Below, piece after piece: positions 7,152 through 30,109 of a stretch of DNA of 32,000 nt (positions within the stretch are counted from its first letter, which is position 1; every line of letters starts with the position of its first letter). Position numbers and translations under genes: made by a program. The notes under the pieces are model-generated. The model was not told the origin of the DNA, ran no database searches, and was given only the letters and a program-made list of their open reading frames with translations. Source of the stretch: Vibrio vulnificus CMCP6 (GTDB taxonomy: Bacteria > Pseudomonadota > Gammaproteobacteria > Enterobacterales > Vibrionaceae); the NCBI RefSeq assembly GCF_000039765.1, contig NC_004459.3, forward strand, positions 1,860,001-1,892,000. The letters run 5' to 3'.

Positions 7152-8294
7152 ATGAGCAACAAGCCATTGCGTATTGGAATTGTCGCTGGAGAGCTCTCTG
7201 GTGATACGCTAGGTGAAGGCTTTATTAAAGCAATCAAAGCCGTTCATCCTGATGCAGAATTTGTTGGTATCGGTGGGCCAAAGATGATCGCTCTAGGCTG
7301 CCAGTCGCTGTTTGATATGGAAGAGTTGGCGGTGATGGGGCTGGTGGAAGTCTTGGGACGCTTACCTCGCTTACTGAAAGTGAAAGCGGAACTGGTGCGT
7401 TACTTTACCGAAAATCCCCCCGATGTATTTGTCGGTATTGACGCGCCAGACTTTAACTTACGCCTTGAGTTAGATCTGAAAAACGCCGGAATTAAAACGG
7501 TGCATTATGTGAGTCCTTCGGTTTGGGCTTGGCGTCAGAAACGCATTTTCAAAATCGCGAAAGCCACCCACTTAGTATTGGCATTTCTGCCCTTCGAAAA
7601 AGCGTTTTACGACAAATTTAATGTCCCTTGTGAGTTTATTGGCCATACTCTCGCCGATGCTATTCCGTTGGAATCAGACAAAGCGCCAGCTCGTGAGTTG
7701 CTTGGGTTGGAACAAGACAAGCAATGGTTGGCAGTGCTGCCGGGCAGCCGCGGTAGTGAGTTGAAAATGCTGTCGCAACCATTCATTGAAACGTGTAAGA
7801 AACTGCAGCAGGCATTCCCAGAACTGGGGTTTGTTGTCGCGTTAGTCAACCAAAAACGGCGCGAGCAGTTTGAACAAGCGTGGAAAGAATACGCGCCAGA
7901 GTTGGATTTCAAACTGGTGGATGATACCGCGCGAAATGTCATTACAGCCTCAGATGCGGTCATGCTTGCCTCGGGTACCGTGGCACTCGAATGCATGTTA
8001 CTTAAGCGTCCAATGGTGGTGGGCTATCGTGTCAATGCAGTGACGGCTTTCCTCGCTAAGCGCCTGCTTAAAACCCAATACGTCTCGTTGCCAAACATTC
8101 TGGCCGACACCGAGTTGGTAAAAGAATATCTTCAAGATGACTGCACGCCAGACAATTTGTTTGGCGAGGTATCTCGCTTGTTAGAAGGTGACAACCACCA
8201 AATGTTGGATAAGTTCACCGAGATGCATCATTGGATCCGCAAAGATGCCGACCAACAAGCGGCTAATGCAGTGTTAAAGTTGATTGAGAAATAG
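7152..8294 (+). CDS. lpxB: Lipid-A-disaccharide synthase LpxB (380 aa)
   Basis: [42 protein letters not shown] and [18 protein letters not shown] are near-identical to E. coli LpxB blocks. Confidence 0.95.
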
Positions 8295-21098: not shown

Positions 21099-21830
21099 AT
21101 GAATACCAGTAACAATTCTGAATACGATCGTATCGTCGTGCTCGATACGGAAACCACGGGTATGAACCGTGAAGGTGGCCCACACTATATGGGGCACAGA
21201 ATCATCGAAATCGGGGCGGTGGAGATCATCAACCGCAAGCTGACCGGGCGACATTTCCATGTTTACCTTAAGCCAGACCGTGAAATTCAACCCGATGCGA
21301 TCGATGTTCACGGTATTACCGATCAGTTTCTAGTTGATAAACCGGAGTATCGTCAAGTTCACCAAGAGTTCCTAGAGTTCATTAAAGGGGCTGAGCTGGT
21401 GGCTCATAACGCGCCCTTCGACGTGGGCTTTATGGATTATGAGTTCGGTAAACTCGACGCCGCCATCGGCAAAACCGATGACTACTGCAAGGTGACCGAT
21501 ACGCTGGCGATGGCGAAGAAGATCTTCCCTGGCAAGCGTAACAACCTAGACGTTTTGTGTGAACGCTACGGCATTGATAACTCACACCGAACGCTTCACG
21601 GGGCATTGCTCGATGCGGAGATTCTGGCTGATGTTTACCTGCTGATGACCGGTGGGCAAACCAGTTTGGAGTTCAACGCCAACTCGCAAGAAGGCGGTGG
21701 TGAAGACATTCGCCGAGTGGCGGGGCGAAAATCTCTTAAGGTTTTGCGTGCAACGGCCGATGAATTAGAAGCGCACCAATCTAGATTGGATATTGTAGAA
21801 AAAAGCGGAACTTGCCTCTGGCGTCAATAG
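21099..21830 (+). CDS. dnaQ: DNA polymerase III epsilon subunit (3'-5' proofreading exonuclease, 243 aa)
   Basis: ExoI VLDTETTG, ExoII AHNAPFDVGFM and ExoIII HGALLDAEILADVY. It is divergent from rnhA as in E. coli. Confidence 0.95.
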   Translation: MNTSNNSEYDRIVVLDTETTGMNREGGPHYMGHRIIEIGAVEIINRKLTGRHFHVYLKPDREIQPDAIDVHGITDQFLVDKPEYRQVHQEFLEFIKGAELVAHNAPFDVGFMDYEFGKLDAAIGKTDDYCKVTDTLAMAKKIFPGKRNNLDVLCERYGIDNSHRTLHGALLDAEILADVYLLMTGGQTSLEFNANSQEGGGEDIRRVAGRKSLKVLRATADELEAHQSRLDIVEKSGTCLWRQ

Positions 21831-21838
21831 GAGAATCT

Positions 21839-23089
21839 ATGTTGAGGACATTGTCAGTCGTATTATTGTTATTGGTTAGTTGTGTAAGCCATGCTGCGAC
21901 AGAGTCGACCATGTCCTTGCTGGATAACCGCTTTCGAGTGGATCCAACCATCGATCAAATCACTTTCTTGATTTATCGCGAAAATCCTTCTCAGCCCGTG
22001 GTGCTAGTGCGACCAGATGGTCGAAAATACTACGCCTTCAAAAGCTACCCCAACGTCCGCTGGTATCAAGAGTCAGCCATGGACATTATCTCTATCGACA
22101 ACCCAATGCCGGGCCCTTGGCAAGCCGTGGGAAAAGTGAGCCCCAAAAACAACATTCGGCTGATTTCTCACCTGACGCTTTCAACGGATCTCTTCCCCAG
22201 TCGTTTGTATCATGGCGAAGTGATGAAATTCACCGCAAGGCTCGCATCGGATGATAAGCCGTTAGTCCTGAGAGATTTCCTTGATCGCGTCAATCTAAAA
22301 GTGACTTTCACGAAGTTTGTTGAAAACGAGCAAGATTTAGTAAAAGAAGCGCGTCCAGTTCCCATTGTTATTGGTGATTTTAGCGATGATGGCACGGGCT
22401 TAGATGAACGAGCTGGCGATGGTGTGTTTACTGTGCAGTTGCCTATCGAAGTGGACCCGGGCAAGTATCGGGCGCGTATCACCTCAGGAAATGGCGTGTT
22501 CCTACGAGCCAAAGAACAGGAAGTGCTGGTCTATCCTAGCCCTGTTTCTACCACCTTCATTCAGTCACGTGATGAAGGCAAGCCACACAGTATTGTGGTT
22601 TCAGGCGAGCAAGGCATGGTGCAGCCTGGGTCTTTGGCGGTTCACATTGAGCAAAGTGCTCCGGATGATTTCGTCAATTATGTGCAAGGGCAGGCGGACA
22701 AAGAGAGCTTAAAAGTGTCGATGCTGCTCGATAGTAGTCAGATGATCGGCATTTATGGTTGGAAGGGTGAAGTGTTCGCCACTGACGCCGCAACACAGCG
22801 CCCATTGATGTTCCCCATCTCACAACAAACGTTCAGTGTTGTGAAAGAGGTGGATATTGAAGCCGCGCGCAAAGCCAAAGAAGCCGCGCTTGCAGAACAA
22901 CGCCGCATTGAAGAAGAACAACGACTTTTGGCGCAAAGAGAGGCCGATCGTAAACAAGCCATCATGATGATTGGTATTGGTAACGTGGTAGTCATCTTAC
23001 TCGGGCTGGTGGTGTGGTTCGTCTGGGGCAAGTTGCGAGCAAAACGCCAAGCCATTCCAGAGATGCAATTAGAAGTGCCGAAGAAATAA
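21839..23089 (+). CDS. Conserved exported, C-terminally membrane-anchored protein of unknown function (416 aa; possibly the TIGR03503 family, from memory only)
   Basis: AGGAGA SD 4 nt before ATG 21839. Signal peptide MLRTLSVVLLLLVSCVSHA. Beta-rich body, then a charged coiled coil (EAARKAKEAALAEQRRIEEEQRLLAQREADRKQ) and a TM anchor (AIMMIGIGNVVVILLGLVVWFVW). Confidence 0.6.
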   Translation: MLRTLSVVLLLLVSCVSHAATESTMSLLDNRFRVDPTIDQITFLIYRENPSQPVVLVRPDGRKYYAFKSYPNVRWYQESAMDIISIDNPMPGPWQAVGKVSPKNNIRLISHLTLSTDLFPSRLYHGEVMKFTARLASDDKPLVLRDFLDRVNLKVTFTKFVENEQDLVKEARPVPIVIGDFSDDGTGLDERAGDGVFTVQLPIEVDPGKYRARITSGNGVFLRAKEQEVLVYPSPVSTTFIQSRDEGKPHSIVVSGEQGMVQPGSLAVHIEQSAPDDFVNYVQGQADKESLKVSMLLDSSQMIGIYGWKGEVFATDAATQRPLMFPISQQTFSVVKEVDIEAARKAKEAALAEQRRIEEEQRLLAQREADRKQAIMMIGIGNVVVILLGLVVWFVWGKLRAKRQAIPEMQLEVPKK

Positions 23090-25758: not shown

Positions 25759-25813
25759 AAGCCATTGCTATTCAGTGTGTCTTTTCGACGGGCATATTAT
25801 TGAGCAATGGCTT
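25759..25813. repeat. Inverted repeat between convergent kefB/C and immunity gene 2 (possible kefB/C terminator; left edge of the island)
   Basis: AAGCCATTGCT (25759-25769) pairs with AGCAATGGCTT (25803-25813), an 11-bp perfect stem with a 33-nt loop. It runs into a T-tract (25812-25816) on the plus strand. The immunity gene 2 stop codon (25815-25817) abuts it. Confidence 0.45.
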
Positions 25814-25814
25814 T

Positions 25815-26495
25815 TTAACATATCAGATTCCCATCGGCGTCGTATTCAGCGCGAGTGCCCATATCTTCTTGATATTCTTCAATTCGGGTAAAACGACAAT
25901 CAAGAGGTTGGTATTTTTCCATGATTTCTTTAACGGATTTATGTACGACGAGGCAATCCGTAAACTGCAAGTCATCCCAAATCAAGCGTTTTTCCAAGGG
26001 CACGGCAGCGAGTTTTTCTGGTGATAAGACGATTTTTTCGAAGGTGTAGAGCGGAGGCAGGTAGTCGGCAAAGACATCTTTTTCGTACTCGCTCTGGTCA
26101 AAATCAACGAAATCGTAATAGGCATAATCTCGGTCTACAGGATTTCGGAAAAAATTCAGGTAGTGGTAATCATCGTGGTAAGTGTCATCGTCATTGATGA
26201 TAACGGCTCTCAGCCATTGCGCTCCGGTGATATCGATATGGCGCAGTGCCAGATACAGCTCGCGTTTCACCATCATGTTTCTGCCGGACATATGTAAGTT
26301 ACACAACTGGTGGTGAATCCCCTGACTTACATCTTCATCCCTAAAGCCGTTTTCAAAGTAGAACCAGCGGTTGGTGTTTTCTTGAAACTGATTAAACGTA
26401 AGATCAGCTCCTGCATTTTTCTCATGACCAGTCAAAACCATAGCGTGCTCGCCCACGCGCTGGTAAACCACATAATAATCAGAAAACTTATTCAT
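25815..26495 (-). CDS. Putative nuclease-immunity protein, copy 2 (226 aa; acidic; possibly DUF1629/Imm11-like)
   Basis: Last gene of the PAAR/nuclease operon, with an ATGA overlap to copy 1. No signal peptide or TM segment. About 92% identical to copy 1. The family guess rests on size, context and a ...DDLQFTD.LVVHKSVKEIMEKY... block, not on a search. Confidence 0.6.
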   Translation of the reverse strand: MNKFSDYYVVYQRVGEHAMVLTGHEKNAGADLTFNQFQENTNRWFYFENGFRDEDVSQGIHHQLCNLHMSGRNMMVKRELYLALRHIDITGAQWLRAVIINDDDTYHDDYHYLNFFRNPVDRDYAYYDFVDFDQSEYEKDVFADYLPPLYTFEKIVLSPEKLAAVPLEKRLIWDDLQFTDCLVVHKSVKEIMEKYQPLDCRFTRIEEYQEDMGTRAEYDADGNLIC

Positions 26496-27179
26496 ATTAG
26501 ATTCCCATCGGCGTCGTATTCTGCGCGAGTACCCATGTTCTCTTTATGTTCCTCTATCCGAGTAAAACGACAGTCGAGAGGTTGGTATTTTTCCATGATT
26601 TCTTTAACGGATTTATGTACAACAAGTCGGTCAGTAAACTGCAAGTCATCCCAAATTAAGCGTTTTTCCAAGGGCACGGCAGCGAGTTTTTCTGGTGATA
26701 AGACGATTTTTTCGAAGGTGTAGAGCGGGGGCAGGTAATCAGCAAAGACATCTTTCTCGTACTCGCTCTGCTCAAAATCAACGAAATCGTAATAGGCGTA
26801 ATCTCGGTCTACAGGATTTCGAAAAAAATTCAGGTAGTGGTAATCATCGTGGTAAGTGTCATCGTCATTGATGATAACGGCTCTCAGCCATTGCGCTCCG
26901 GCGATTTCGATATGGCGCAGTGCCAGATACAGCTCGCGTTTCACCATCATGTTTCTGCCGGACATATGTAAGTTACACAACTGGTGGTGTATCCCCTGAC
27001 TTACATCTTCATCCCTAAAGCCATTTTCAAAGTAAAACCAGCGGTTGGTGTCTTCCTGGAAGTCATTACCCGTCAGGTCTCGTGGAACATCATTTTCATG
27101 CCCGACTAACACCATGGCGTGCTCGCCTACACGCTGGTAAACTACATAATAATCAGAAAACTTACTCATATCAGATTCC
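25819..27179. repeat. Tandem direct duplication, period exactly 674 bp (2 full units plus a 13-nt third junction copy)
   Basis: Unit A is 25819-26492, unit B is 26493-27166, and a partial third copy is 27167-27179. The junction motif CATATCAGATTCC occurs at 25819 and 27167, and as CATATTAGATTCC at 26493. The units are about 90% identical by hand alignment. Confidence 0.9.
26492..27169 (-). CDS. Putative nuclease-immunity protein, copy 1 (225 aa; acidic)
   Basis: Starts 1 nt after the nuclease stop, with an AAGGA SD 7 nt upstream. By hand count it has about 43 D/E versus about 25 K/R. That is typical of nuclease inhibitors paired with a basic toxin. Cytoplasmic (no signal or TM). Confidence 0.6.
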   Translation of the reverse strand: MSKFSDYYVVYQRVGEHAMVLVGHENDVPRDLTGNDFQEDTNRWFYFENGFRDEDVSQGIHHQLCNLHMSGRNMMVKRELYLALRHIEIAGAQWLRAVIINDDDTYHDDYHYLNFFRNPVDRDYAYYDFVDFEQSEYEKDVFADYLPPLYTFEKIVLSPEKLAAVPLEKRLIWDDLQFTDRLVVHKSVKEIMEKYQPLDCRFTRIEEHKENMGTRAEYDADGNLI

Positions 27180-28028
27180 TTGCTTTAATGTCCATTTATC
27201 ACCTTTGGGCCAGGTGATCACTCGGTTGTTCCAAATCGCATGTTCTTTGCTTAATTCAGGGCGTTTAAAGTTGTACTTTCGGTCGGTTTGGCCAAAATGG
27301 TTGCAGCCAACGGGGCAGCGTTCACTGGTTTCTCGAGCTTTTGTAATGTTGGTTTGGCCTCGGCATCCCACGTATGAAGAAAAATTGTTGGGGATATTGG
27401 TAAGAGCCACTTCACAAGATATGATTTGATCCAATAAACGTTTGCTTATTTTGTTTGTGATATCGTCGATATTAGGTGTTTTATCGCTTGCTTTTGTGTT
27501 AGGGGGACATCGTTTTAAATGTTCTTTGACCTTTTCAAGTTCATTTTTTACGGTGGTGTGATAGGCCTTACTTTCTACGGGCTTGTCTGGGTGTTCGCCT
27601 CGGTGTGCTTGCAAGCCTAAATGGCACGCCCCTGGCAAGGTTGCGGGCAAGCCGACTAAGTTGTCGAGGGTGTCGATGATATATCCAGCGTTGACTAACT
27701 TTTGAGCATTGCGTTTATCCAAATGCGCCCCTTTAGATGAGATTAAGTGATGGGTCTCCATATGAATGCCCAGAAAATAGGGGTGAGGCTCGCCATCCAC
27801 ATACCAGCGATTCGCGATCTGCGAGCGTTTATGCGCGGGGCGCAGCATGGCTTCTGCTTCGCTGGCCAGTTTCCAGTTGTACTTAGACCTGACATTGGCA
27901 ATCCACCGTTGTCGGTAGTCCATTTTTTCTAAGTTGCCCAATGTTTGTGGTGATTCTGAGTCATCCGAGCTTGGGTTGCCTAACGATGGCGAGGGTGAGT
28001 TTGTTCCGCTCGGTTTAATATTACGCAT
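27171..28028 (-). CDS. Putative HNH/EndoVII-fold (AHH-clade, THH variant) nuclease toxin, free-standing (285 aa)
   Basis: Motif string: HMETHHLIS (aa 89-97), GYIIDTLDNLVGLP (115-128), CHLGLQAHRGEHP (135-147) and AYHTTV (155-160). This fits the s-HH / N..LP / H....H.G.H..Y pattern of AHH-type His-Me finger toxins. Net basic. GGGAG SD 8 nt upstream of the ATG. Followed by acidic immunity-like genes. Confidence 0.7.
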   Translation of the reverse strand: MRNIKPSGTNSPSPSLGNPSSDDSESPQTLGNLEKMDYRQRWIANVRSKYNWKLASEAEAMLRPAHKRSQIANRWYVDGEPHPYFLGIHMETHHLISSKGAHLDKRNAQKLVNAGYIIDTLDNLVGLPATLPGACHLGLQAHRGEHPDKPVESKAYHTTVKNELEKVKEHLKRCPPNTKASDKTPNIDDITNKISKRLLDQIISCEVALTNIPNNFSSYVGCRGQTNITKARETSERCPVGCNHFGQTDRKYNFKRPELSKEHAIWNNRVITWPKGDKWTLKQGI

Positions 28029-30045
28029 AATTTAATCTCCCGGCTCTGACGGGCTTAGTATCGTGGCCTGTTTTTCCGCACACGCGACATCTTGGTGGTT
28101 TGTCATCACGTTTTGGCGTCGAAACGCTCTTTTTCACCGTTCGATTGGTCCAACCCGTGAATGTCGTTGATAGTGCTTTGGATCTTGCAATCGCGATTTT
28201 TTTCAGTTTTTCGAACAGTGCAAGAAGTTGCTCAAATGCACTCAAAACTGCGTTAAGTCCACTTCGCATGTTTTGTACCGCTTTGTTGTGGCTTACTGCC
28301 TTGGCAAACATATTTGAGTATTTCGCTACTTTTTGAGACGTTGCTGCGGCTTTGACGGCGGCTCCTGCTCCGACCGAGATCAGACCAAGTAGCAATACCA
28401 ACAAAACTTCGAGAGCGATGTAAATGCCAGCTTTTCCTAGACAGTAGGTATAAAAATTAGGTGGGATCTCTTCAAAAATACGCATGATGTAGTCGAGGTA
28501 AAGCAAGACACTGTCATCTTCTTCTAACAACGCAATGAACAAGTGGAAATCTGAACTGTTACGTAACTTTTGAGCTAAGTCTGGATCAATTTCGTCTAGT
28601 GTTGACTCTATAAATCGTTGGATTTCTTTCACTTTTCGTTGTCTGATATGGCCAATTAATGCAAATATCTCCTCTCTGTATTTTACGTAAACACTTAACT
28701 CTTCAGCGGAGTTGACGGCTTTGTTGTAAATATCGAGTGGGCTATGTTCAGCAAAGAAAATTTCTATCGAGTCAGGTACTAGTGGCTCAACAACAACATC
28801 ATAAGCAATGCCAGAATAAAGCTTGGTCATTTCTGTTACACCAATGGCGAAGACATGCGAGTCAGCTTGTAGTGTCTCCAGCCAGTTACTCTCTATCGCC
28901 TTACCGCGCTCATCATATTTTATTGCGCGGATTCCATTGATGATGTTTGTACGAGCCTGAATAAATCGGTGGTCAATTTTATTCTGTATGCTTGATGCAT
29001 ATTCGCCTAATGAATCCCAACCGCGTGACAACCCTTCGGATAAGGTATCGCCAAGTTCTCCCCAAAGCTCTGGTGTAAACAAATCCAGTTGATCAGAGCT
29101 CCATGCAACAGCACCATCGTAAACGCCGTCGGCAAGAGTTAGCCATCCTCGTTCTGCCCATGCTTCATTGAATGGTTTCATGCTGTCTGAGACCGATGTA
29201 AAGATACTATCGAGTTCTTTGTGTAACTCATCAGTTAACTGTTTTATTTCACTAGCAGAACCACTCTTCCCAAGCACATCAACAAGAACCTTGGTTTGTT
29301 CGAGAGGAATATTTTCAATAACGTGGACACCGGGTTCAAATTGTTCAGATTGTTTTGCTTCTTGTACTTCGTAATGGTCAGAGTTGCGTTTTGTGGTTCC
29401 CTTCGTGTGCTTTGTTGAAGCCTCTACTTCGTGAACGAGTTTCTGAGAGCCATCGCTGGACTCAGTGCTAATGACCGAGCTATAAAACGGAATCGCGGTA
29501 TTCCAAAGATCATCATATTCCAACCGGATCTTGACCCAACTGAACTCTTCTTTCTCTGCTTCTGTTGCAAAGCTTTCGCCGTCTGTTCTAGCCGTTATAT
29601 CTTCATGCTGTTGGAATTGATCAGATAGGGAAGATTGCAATAATGGTTGATGGCTTTGTGATGTAGCCAGCGAGCTTGCGCTCTCTGCGGTACTTTCTTT
29701 AGCAGATGTGGAAGAGCTTTTAGGCGCAGGAGAGGGTTGGACGACAATCCCTGCATCTCCGATAAGCACTGTTCCTGCACCGCTAATTATAACCCCGCCA
29801 TGGGATGAACTATCGCCCAGTCTTGCAGCGGGTTTACCGTTAATAAAAACTGACGATGATCCACCAGATATACTATCTGCTGGGCCTACACATACGATTG
29901 AATCGCCTTCACGCGCAGCTGGAAGCCCCTCAATGAACACATTTGGAGAGCCGTTAACGATTGGTCCCCCCACATGGGGCACTTTACCCGTCTTTTTAGG
30001 GCAGACGTGAAAATCGGAGATGCGTGCCGCTGGCTTTTTACTCAA
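28021..30045 (-). CDS. PAAR domain-containing protein with a long uncharacterised C-terminal extension (674 aa, TTG start); putative T6SS spike-tip carrier or effector
   Basis: Residues 5-96 carry three PAAR-type repeats (KPAARISDFHVCP...PHVGGPIV; GLPAAREGDSIVCVGP; GKPAARLGDSSSHGG), as in Rhs-type PAAR domains. An S/T/A/P-rich linker follows (about aa 101-165), then about 370 aa with no motif I recognise. One hydrophobic helix spans about aa 539-567, followed by a basic tail with CRVCGKTGH. TTG is the only possible start, because an in-frame stop lies 3 codons upstream. Confidence 0.85.
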   Translation of the reverse strand: MSKKPAARISDFHVCPKKTGKVPHVGGPIVNGSPNVFIEGLPAAREGDSIVCVGPADSISGGSSSVFINGKPAARLGDSSSHGGVIISGAGTVLIGDAGIVVQPSPAPKSSSTSAKESTAESASSLATSQSHQPLLQSSLSDQFQQHEDITARTDGESFATEAEKEEFSWVKIRLEYDDLWNTAIPFYSSVISTESSDGSQKLVHEVEASTKHTKGTTKRNSDHYEVQEAKQSEQFEPGVHVIENIPLEQTKVLVDVLGKSGSASEIKQLTDELHKELDSIFTSVSDSMKPFNEAWAERGWLTLADGVYDGAVAWSSDQLDLFTPELWGELGDTLSEGLSRGWDSLGEYASSIQNKIDHRFIQARTNIINGIRAIKYDERGKAIESNWLETLQADSHVFAIGVTEMTKLYSGIAYDVVVEPLVPDSIEIFFAEHSPLDIYNKAVNSAEELSVYVKYREEIFALIGHIRQRKVKEIQRFIESTLDEIDPDLAQKLRNSSDFHLFIALLEEDDSVLLYLDYIMRIFEEIPPNFYTYCLGKAGIYIALEVLLVLLLGLISVGAGAAVKAAATSQKVAKYSNMFAKAVSHNKAVQNMRSGLNAVLSAFEQLLALFEKLKKIAIARSKALSTTFTGWTNRTVKKSVSTPKRDDKPPRCRVCGKTGHDTKPVRAGRLNYA

Positions 30046-30079: not shown

Positions 30080-30109
30080 ATTATCAAGACCAAAGCAGTG
30101 AAGTAGCAA
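30080..30109 (-). promoter_or_regulatory. Candidate sigma70 promoter for the PAAR operon
   Basis: On the minus strand: TTGCTA (30109-30104), an 18-nt spacer, then GATAAT (30085-30080), about 35 nt upstream of the TTG start. Sequence match only, and several other weak matches exist in the AT-rich leader. Confidence 0.3.

Follow-up and report, generated by a model that had tools for sequence, protein, structure and literature searches.

We describe a putative type VI secretion system (T6SS) toxin module in Vibrio vulnificus CMCP6, located in a 32,000-nucleotide (nt) stretch of contig NC_004459.3 (positions 1,860,001 to 1,892,000 of the forward strand). This stretch is referred to as the window, and its own numbering is used for coordinates unless another locus is named. 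The module centers on a 285-amino acid (aa) protein encoded at 27171-28028, which we consider, with a probability of about 0.85, to be an antibacterial T6SS cargo effector, namely a metal-dependent nuclease of the AHH family (His-Me finger) that most likely acts as a DNase. The toxin is encoded directly downstream of a PAAR gene with a C-terminal extension and is followed by an immunity gene. An earlier reading of the DNA letters alone (the original prediction) had proposed such a nuclease and had regarded its stand-alone form, its Thr-containing xHH motif, and both of its termini as peculiar; the analysis accounts for each toxin feature that was then deemed odd. The locus is a known arrangement in vibrios that is conserved across many bacteria, and its product would be an ordinary T6SS nuclease toxin. 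As such, the finding itself matters little, since it provides one more "AHH domain-containing protein" effector/immunity set in the V. vulnificus T6SS arsenal, and the only parts of the locus possibly worth further work are the PAAR protein's carrier domain and its conserved split point.

The toxin gene and its product

The open reading frame (ORF) put forward in the original prediction is real and consists of 285 codons. It lies on the minus strand, which had been left unstated, and the plus-strand translation of the same interval contains many stops. The ATG overlaps the stop codon of the PAAR gene (ATGCGTAA) and is preceded by GGGAGA 7 nt upstream; this ribosome-binding site (RBS), together with the ATG/stop overlap, makes the start codon credible. 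The PAAR and toxin ORFs share 8 nt, which are read in different frames. The toxin and its parts are as follows.

27171..28028, minus strand (28028->27171): AHH-family nuclease toxin, predicted T6SS cargo effector, 285 aa (Pfam AHH, 132 relatives, AlphaFold2 (AF2) model, and dN/dS, the ratio of nonsynonymous to synonymous substitution rates)
27939..28028, minus strand: variable N-terminal leader, aa 1-30 (alignments; predicted local distance difference test (pLDDT) 44-66)
27798..27887, minus strand: 30-aa insertion, aa 48-77, in V. vulnificus alleles only (alignment columns; pLDDT 57-77)
27447..27764, minus strand: predicted AHH/His-Me finger core, aa 89-194, with T92-H93-H94, N123, C135, H142, H146, Y156-H157, and C174 (Pfam, column conservation, model)
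27174..27446, minus strand: conserved C-terminal subdomain, aa 195-285, with G221-C222, C238, H244, and I271..W279.L281..G284 (column conservation; pLDDT mostly 90-97)

The peptide ETHHLIS, quoted in the original prediction, begins at aa 91, and the ETHH...KAYH core occupies nt 27558-27758 as compared to the ~27549-27767 first given. The protein is net basic, as had been counted by hand, with 42 K+R, 30 D+E, 13 His, and an isoelectric point (pI) of 9.4. Its Cys residues are found at 135, 174, 205, 222, 238, and 242; the last five were listed correctly in the original prediction as following the core, and the sixth, C135, lies inside the core within 'GACH'. A word-indexed homolog search returned five V. 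vulnificus alleles (five clusters) that are 87-97% identical and exactly 285 aa each, and the sources of these alleles annotate the toxin as "AHH domain-containing protein".

Family assignment and conserved residues

The sole Pfam match of the toxin is AHH (PF14412), which spans residues 89-194 at E = 1e-12 and scores 48.4 bits, the cut-off being 22.3. Since this score is well above the cut-off, the AHH motif is not a chance match. The same model recognizes 75 of 75 aligned relatives, and the assignment to the AHH clade of His-Me/HNH nuclease toxins therefore stands as originally proposed. Searches of the toxin against NCBIfam, PADLOC, and PHROGs gave no match. Pfam detected no marker domain of the MIX, FIX, or WHIX type on the toxin, and both the toxin and the carrier lack a WHxxxH motif, RIX being a type that these searches do not cover.

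When 1.84 billion cluster representatives were searched exhaustively using phmmer, 132 relatives were obtained. Column statistics were taken from alignments of 132 and of 75 sequences, and the x position of the xHH motif was counted in 123. Most of the 132 relatives are stand-alone proteins of 200-260 aa that match the query from residue ~80 to 250 or beyond, and a handful are 470-790 aa long with the AHH domain at the C-terminus. The stand-alone form, which the original prediction had found unusual, is thus the norm in this subfamily, and in 25 of the 30 related loci described below the toxin gene adjoins a carrier gene.

Eleven toxin columns are invariant among the 75 sequences (H93, H94, N123, A134, C135, H142, H146, Y156, C174, G221, and C222), and a further set is at least 90% conserved (H82, P83, M90, C238, R242, and H244). 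The toxin accordingly presents the pattern of an xHH motif (H93 and H94), a conserved Asn (N123), and downstream His residues (H142 and H146). The first residue of xHH is Ala in 99, Val in 11, and Thr in 8 of the 123 sequences counted. The Thr noted earlier is therefore present and in the minority, but it is a clade-level variant at a small-residue position and not an oddity, as Thr is typical of the nearest relatives, which are mostly Vibrionaceae.

The last 15 residues of the toxin are also conserved family-wide (I271, Y/W279, L281, and G284). Because its columns, including these, are conserved across the family, the segment formed by residues 195-285 is, to judge from the alignments, an integral subdomain that reaches beyond the 111-position Pfam model and not an add-on. 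The Cys-rich C-terminal extension of the original prediction is consequently upheld for C174, C222, and C238, which are conserved, but not as an extension, as the region aligns family-wide. C205 and C242 are lineage-specific; the former is Asn in another V. vulnificus allele (C205N) and the latter takes the place of a near-invariant Arg.

The N-terminal part of the toxin is far more variable. The first 35 aa contain 8 Ser, 5 Pro, 4 Asn, and 3 Gly, confirming the low-complexity composition reported earlier. Residues 1-19 are Ser/Pro-rich, lineage-specific, and without counterpart in relatives, and the acidic ESDF.DG.IEKKGY leader found in the Vibrionaceae relatives corresponds in the alignments to residues 20-38. 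The columns of aa 48-77 are filled almost solely by the query among the 132 aligned sequences.

Structural model of the toxin

The toxin was modeled using AF2 with the 75-sequence alignment. The resulting model has a pLDDT of 84.1 and a predicted template modeling score (pTM) of 0.83, with core blocks at 93-97 and residues 1-14 below 50. Within the core, a strand at 90-94 is followed by a strand at 124-128 and a helix at 131-137 (pLDDT 93-97), and this predicted order of elements is that expected for a beta-beta-alpha finger. Sequence and profile searches of the toxin against PDB chains returned chance-level matches only.

Gene context in related bacteria

A scan for related loci, which covered one genome per species and used an 8-sequence alignment, identified 30 loci, from taxa that include Vibrio, Photobacterium, Enterovibrio, Pseudoalteromonas, Alteromonadaceae, Cellvibrionaceae, Oxalobacteraceae, Iodobacter, Denitromonas, Desulfobacterales, Lentisphaeria, and Rubrimonas. 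A carrier homolog is encoded directly 5' of the toxin gene in 25 of these loci, which represent Gamma-, Beta-, and Deltaproteobacteria, Lentisphaeria, and Rubrimonas, and the spacing between the carrier stop and the toxin start is -8 to +60 nt. All 25 carrier homologs match aa 481-674 of the window carrier (phmmer E ~1e-3 to 5e-35), and 24 of them also match aa 101-480. One to seven immunity homologs follow the toxin in 23 of these 25 loci; no immunity ORF was detected downstream of the toxin in the remaining loci L019 and L028. Exceptions among the 30 include a contig end (L015) and a shortened carrier (L023).

The N-termini of the related carriers vary and consist of PAAR, Tox-PAAR-like (PF13665), or VgrG (Phage_GPD) domains. 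Where a carrier has no N-terminal domain, a vgrG gene (T6SS_Vgr, DUF2345) or a DUF4123 adaptor gene is immediately upstream. The order carrier, toxin, and immunity gene is thus linked to PAAR, PAAR-like, or VgrG proteins. Among metagenomes, three matches to the carrier tail were examined, and in all three an AHH gene is next, followed by another downstream gene. The latter matches Imm11 in two of the three; the match is only faint in L032, and there is no Pfam match in L035. In addition, the carrier tail, the CxxC-H motif, and the toxin occur naturally as a single chain in five proteins (P0134, P0226, P0222, P0252, and P0236).

Two loci have further features of note. In the metagenome contig L034 (2646-4676 and 5455-6006), a split carrier/AHH/Imm11 set is followed by tandem AHH proteins of 676 aa and 708 aa, such that split and long toxin forms occur within one array. 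In L001 (CP059888.1), the toxin is fused to a carrier tail without any PAAR, and a 43-aa ORF between two Imm11 genes (7851-7982) matches the C-terminal tail of an AHH toxin (…RNHQGQTHYL…EITYTKFYYQLSVKR). By this match, the 43-aa ORF is most simply read as a displaced toxin remnant beside an orphan immunity gene.

The PAAR carrier protein

The protein encoded upstream of the toxin was correctly taken to be a PAAR protein in the original prediction, and its PAAR domain is found by Pfam. Its features are given below.

28021..30045, minus strand: PAAR carrier protein, 674 aa, in which the PAAR domain and an S/T-rich linker precede a conserved carrier region of ~570 aa (Pfam, related loci)
29782..29991, minus strand: PAAR domain, aa 19-88 (Pfam PAAR_motif E 4.9e-24; NCBIfam T6SS_PAAR_dom sub-threshold; PHROG PAAR)
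28024-29745, minus strand: conserved carrier region, aa 101-674, a domain of ~400-570 aa (homologous in L002-L031)
28351..28428, minus strand: hydrophobic helix, aa ~540-565, after the invariant PPNFY at aa 528 (Kyte-Doolittle mean 2.5 over 19 aa)
28063..28089, minus strand: C-terminal motif CRVCGKTGH (CxxC-x4-H, then T-P/K), 14 residues before the stop (23 carrier tails)

The carriers share the ending KRDxx-C-R-x-C-x4-H-x-T-P-R...G...Y-stop, and 5' of this ending are PPNFY, the hydrophobic helix, and long helices. Within the CxxC-x4-H motif, the two Cys, the His, and the Thr are invariant in 23 carrier tails. The hydrophobic helix is conserved in the same number of tails and is modeled within long helices, and a DIDPE motif ahead of PPNFY is a further mark of the domain. 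No Pfam or NCBIfam family matched the carrier domain, and a word-indexed search with the carrier-tail profile returned 12 fragments, none of which contains a Pfam domain. This makes the carrier domain the only, and only mildly, novel element of the locus. A low-complexity linker rich in Ser, Thr, Ala, and Pro (VVQPSPAPKSSSTSAKESTAESASSLATSQS) lies 3' of the PAAR domain (aa ~96-135 of the PAAR protein, 29640-29760, minus strand), and most differences in the PAAR protein between strains are found in or just after this linker, at aa 112-160.

It is conceivable, if rather unlikely, that the ~400-aa carrier region represents a delivery domain not described before and devoted to this AHH subfamily, in which the CxxC-H motif may complete a zinc site with the toxin as a non-covalent clasp and the hydrophobic helix may aid the nuclease across the inner membrane of the target. 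The notion of a clasp arises because the gene split is always just after CxxC-H and, in the fused forms, the toxin core is preceded by this motif. The carrier domain is tied almost without exception to this AHH toxin subfamily in distant bacteria of several phyla. It could therefore help to find T6SS nuclease cargo, as a marker, and offer a tractable model for studying how split polymorphic toxins are loaded.

Immunity genes and variation within V. vulnificus

Two genes follow the toxin gene.

26492..27169, minus strand: immunity gene 1, 225 aa, acidic, pI 4.85, presumed cognate, putative divergent Imm11 (homologs match Imm11; 1-nt gap after the toxin gene)
25815..26495, minus strand: immunity gene 2, 226 aa, acidic, putative orphan immunity gene (identity to the first immunity gene of L037)

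The two genes are 92% identical to one another. Their products are homologous to the immunity ORFs of the related loci (phmmer E down to ~1e-18), where 25 of 34 immunity homologs match Imm11 at E ≤ 0.01 (best 4.2e-12). Owing to these homolog matches, the assignment of the two downstream genes as divergent Imm11 immunity genes is supported, and the immunity function anticipated in the original prediction is retained. A role in anti-phage defense, or a phage origin of the toxin and immunity genes, was considered and rejected, as neither gave a PADLOC or PHROG match.

The module occupies the same insertion site in three other V. vulnificus strains, and the PAAR and toxin genes are likewise split in strains L036 and L037. 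Between strains, aa identity is 97-98% for the PAAR carrier, 87-91% for the toxin, and 85-90% for the immunity protein, with the drop starting inside the toxin gene at nt ~27850. A conserved PAAR beside a variable toxin and immunity gene is, at this level of comparison, the pattern of a polymorphic toxin. Differences in the toxin are concentrated at aa 103-117, 159-170, and 178-206, and none of the catalytic residues is affected. Based on a dN/dS of 0.24-0.27 between strains, the toxin gene is under purifying selection. A different state is found in L038 (V. vulnificus GCA_030420785.1, 3984-6008), where the PAAR gene is broken into ORFs of 468 aa and 203 aa and the toxin and both immunity genes are intact; the module may be decaying in some V. 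vulnificus strains such as this one.

Immunity gene 2 of the window (25815-26495) is 96% identical to the first immunity gene of L037 (6860-7537), which is presumably cognate there, and this identity suggests that gene 2 is an orphan directed against another circulating allele. Immunity gene 2 of L037 is, in turn, 98% identical to the first immunity gene of L036 (6860-7537). Among the three strains compared, this chain of immunity genes suggests sequential replacement of toxin alleles within V. vulnificus. Orphan immunity arrays in the T6SS auxiliary clusters of Vibrio cholerae reportedly arise by sequential effector displacement (Kirchberger et al. 2017). The window resembles those arrays in that the counterpart of its second immunity gene is the first, presumably cognate, gene beside another strain's toxin allele, and differs in that the comparison here extends to only three V. 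vulnificus strains. The cognate/orphan chain points to toxin warfare within the species, a matter that bears on how strains compete in oysters and in the estuarine habitat.

Comparison with characterized systems

Several aspects of the module have precedent. AHH is the commonest PAAR-associated toxin (11.5%), and ~60% of PAAR-linked toxins are encoded by neighboring genes and not fused, many of them by the adjacent downstream gene (PMC8651086). In the V. parahaemolyticus pan-genome, the VP1415-type PAAR-AHH effector is listed as "Specialized/Cargo", and homologous PAAR modules with the toxin as a separate gene also occur (PMC9765294). VP1415, an effector of V. parahaemolyticus T6SS1, is inactivated by an AHH->AAA substitution (PMC8567230). 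Like the window toxin, it is a PAAR-associated AHH nuclease from Vibrio with a downstream immunity gene; unlike the window toxin, which is a separate 285-aa protein with THH, it forms one polypeptide in which residues 562-564 are AHH. A scan of the genome collection with subfamily peptide patterns returned no V. parahaemolyticus locus, and for this reason the two domains may belong to different AHH subfamilies, VP1415 being compared by description only.

The second reference point is V2a from Agrobacterium tumefaciens 1D1609, a DUF4150/PAAR-like-AHH DNase that is likewise a Tox-AHH His-Me finger T6SS effector with a cognate immunity gene and is inactivated by H385A (PMC10902643). As judged from its description, V2a H385/H386, N412, H430, and H456 parallel H93/H94, N123, H142/H146, and H157 of the window toxin, whereas V2a is fused to its PAAR-like domain. 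Both VP1415 and V2a are validated AHH effectors in which the HH pair is essential (PMC8567230, PMC10902643). The window locus agrees with what is known of such systems and lacks only the single polypeptide of PAAR and toxin found in the specialized effectors VP1415 and V2a, having instead two ORFs with a stop, an RBS, and an ATG.

It is established that loading platforms at the C-terminus, along with their cargo effector and immunity gene, form modules that swap between PAAR, VgrG, and RIX (PMC10435454). The Rte1/Rti1 modules of Kanarek et al. 2023 are similar to the window in that C-terminal extension, cargo effector, and immunity travel together on PAAR, PAAR-like, or VgrG proteins (PMC10435454). 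However, the Rte1/Rti1 platform is a TTR domain that is predicted by AF2 to complete a barrel with the effector N-terminus, whereas the platform in the window is a domain of ~400 aa that is largely helical, includes a hydrophobic helix and a terminal CxxC-H motif, and has no Pfam family.

Proposed mechanism and alternative explanations

Our current hypothesis is that the locus is a four-gene operon consisting of the PAAR-carrier, the toxin, the immunity gene, and the orphan immunity gene, in which the toxin would be translated as a separate polypeptide. In the producer cell, the acidic Imm11-type protein from the next gene would neutralize the toxin. The toxin would attach, without a covalent bond, to the conserved region at the C-terminus of the upstream PAAR protein, and since the PAAR protein would cap the VgrG spike, firing of the T6SS would take the toxin into a neighboring cell. 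Once in the target cell, H94 would act as the general base, with H93, N123, H142, and H146 holding the metal and the scissile phosphate, and nucleic acid, likely DNA, would be cut. His-Me fingers generally require additional stabilizing elements (PMC10902643). The invariant C135, C174, and C222, and C238, together with H244, probably hold a structural zinc that would staple the C-terminal subdomain to the small catalytic core.

Four observations weigh against this proposal. A model of the carrier tail fused to the toxin, made using AF2 with an alignment of the window fusion, the natural fusions, and unpaired halves, gave a junction pLDDT of 37-49, a pTM of 0.61, and no confident contact; the paired alignment was shallow and there was no contact map. 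Binding of the carrier by the toxin thus remains unsupported by modeling. The same junction values, the lack of conservation of residues 1-19, and the pLDDT below 50 for residues 1-14 also leave the docking role once suggested for the S/P/N/G-rich N-terminus unsupported. In addition, the window immunity proteins score below the Imm11 (PF07791) threshold (13.9 and 15.6 bits as compared to 22.1; E 0.034 for immunity gene 1), three related loci contain toxin-immunity pairs without any carrier (L018, L020, and L026), and there are no T6SS structural genes within the window.

The last two points would also fit delivery by a system other than T6SS, such as an extracellular contractile injection system (eCIS), or an intracellular toxin-antitoxin or anti-phage module, and it is known that PAAR proteins cap eCIS particles too (PMC8651086). 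We regard this explanation as exceedingly improbable, because the carriers of the relatives are fused or adjacent to VgrG (T6SS_Vgr, DUF2345) or adjacent to the T6SS adaptor DUF4123, the PADLOC and PHROG searches of toxin and immunity were negative, and T6SS1 and T6SS2 of V. vulnificus have antibacterial activity (PMC5087951, PMC13348674). The nature of the target offers more latitude. A nuclease acting on RNA (tRNA/rRNA) or a specific DNA structure, and not on bulk DNA, seems improbable given that the characterized T6SS AHH/SHH/GHH effectors V2a, V2c, and Tse7 degrade DNA (PMC10902643) and that the catalytic residues of the window toxin are the standard AHH set. It should be noted that the substrate is not readable from sequence, that there is no solved relative for comparison, and that the ~90-aa C-terminal subdomain and basic charge (pI 9.4) could give a particular specificity.

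The toxin could also be what remains of a specialized effector, if a frameshift or stop had disrupted a formerly fused PAAR-carrier-AHH gene; the resulting toxin fragment would be non-secreted or non-functional. The natural fused carrier-AHH proteins, the 8-nt overlap of the PAAR and toxin ORFs in different frames, and the PAAR gene of L038, split into 468 aa and 203 aa, would be in line with such decay. Nevertheless, we find it very unlikely, as 25 loci spread over several phyla have the same split point after CxxC-x4-H-x-TPR...Y, and in these loci the ORFs are intact and begin at start codons of their own. The window toxin gene has an RBS, the five V. vulnificus alleles are all 285 aa, the dN/dS indicates constraint, and the split configuration is recognized as a cargo arrangement in V. 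parahaemolyticus (PMC9765294).

Genomic surroundings

The PAAR-toxin-immunity island is positioned between kefG-kefC and fadE and has a lower GC content than its flanks. The remainder of the window consists of core genes (rseP, bamA, lpxD, lpxB, dnaE, accA, tilS, and mltD). One putative regulatory feature was located upstream of the PAAR gene.

30080..30109, minus strand: promoter-like site upstream of the PAAR gene and downstream of the terminator-like hairpin of fadE (30293-30273) (consensus match)

Evidence for this site is weak, being a consensus match only, and such sites are fewer than in shuffled sequence. At the other end of the island, a perfect inverted repeat of 11 nt (AAGCCATTGCT ... 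AGCAATGGCTT) that encloses a 33-nt loop is found at 25759-25813, right after the stop of the last immunity gene and before the convergent kefC; it was not called by the terminator scan. Lastly, an ORF of 425 aa at 21812-23089 (plus strand), for which no Pfam match was obtained at E ≤ 1e-5, lies between core genes and has a signal-peptide-like N-terminus and a C-terminal hydrophobic anchor.

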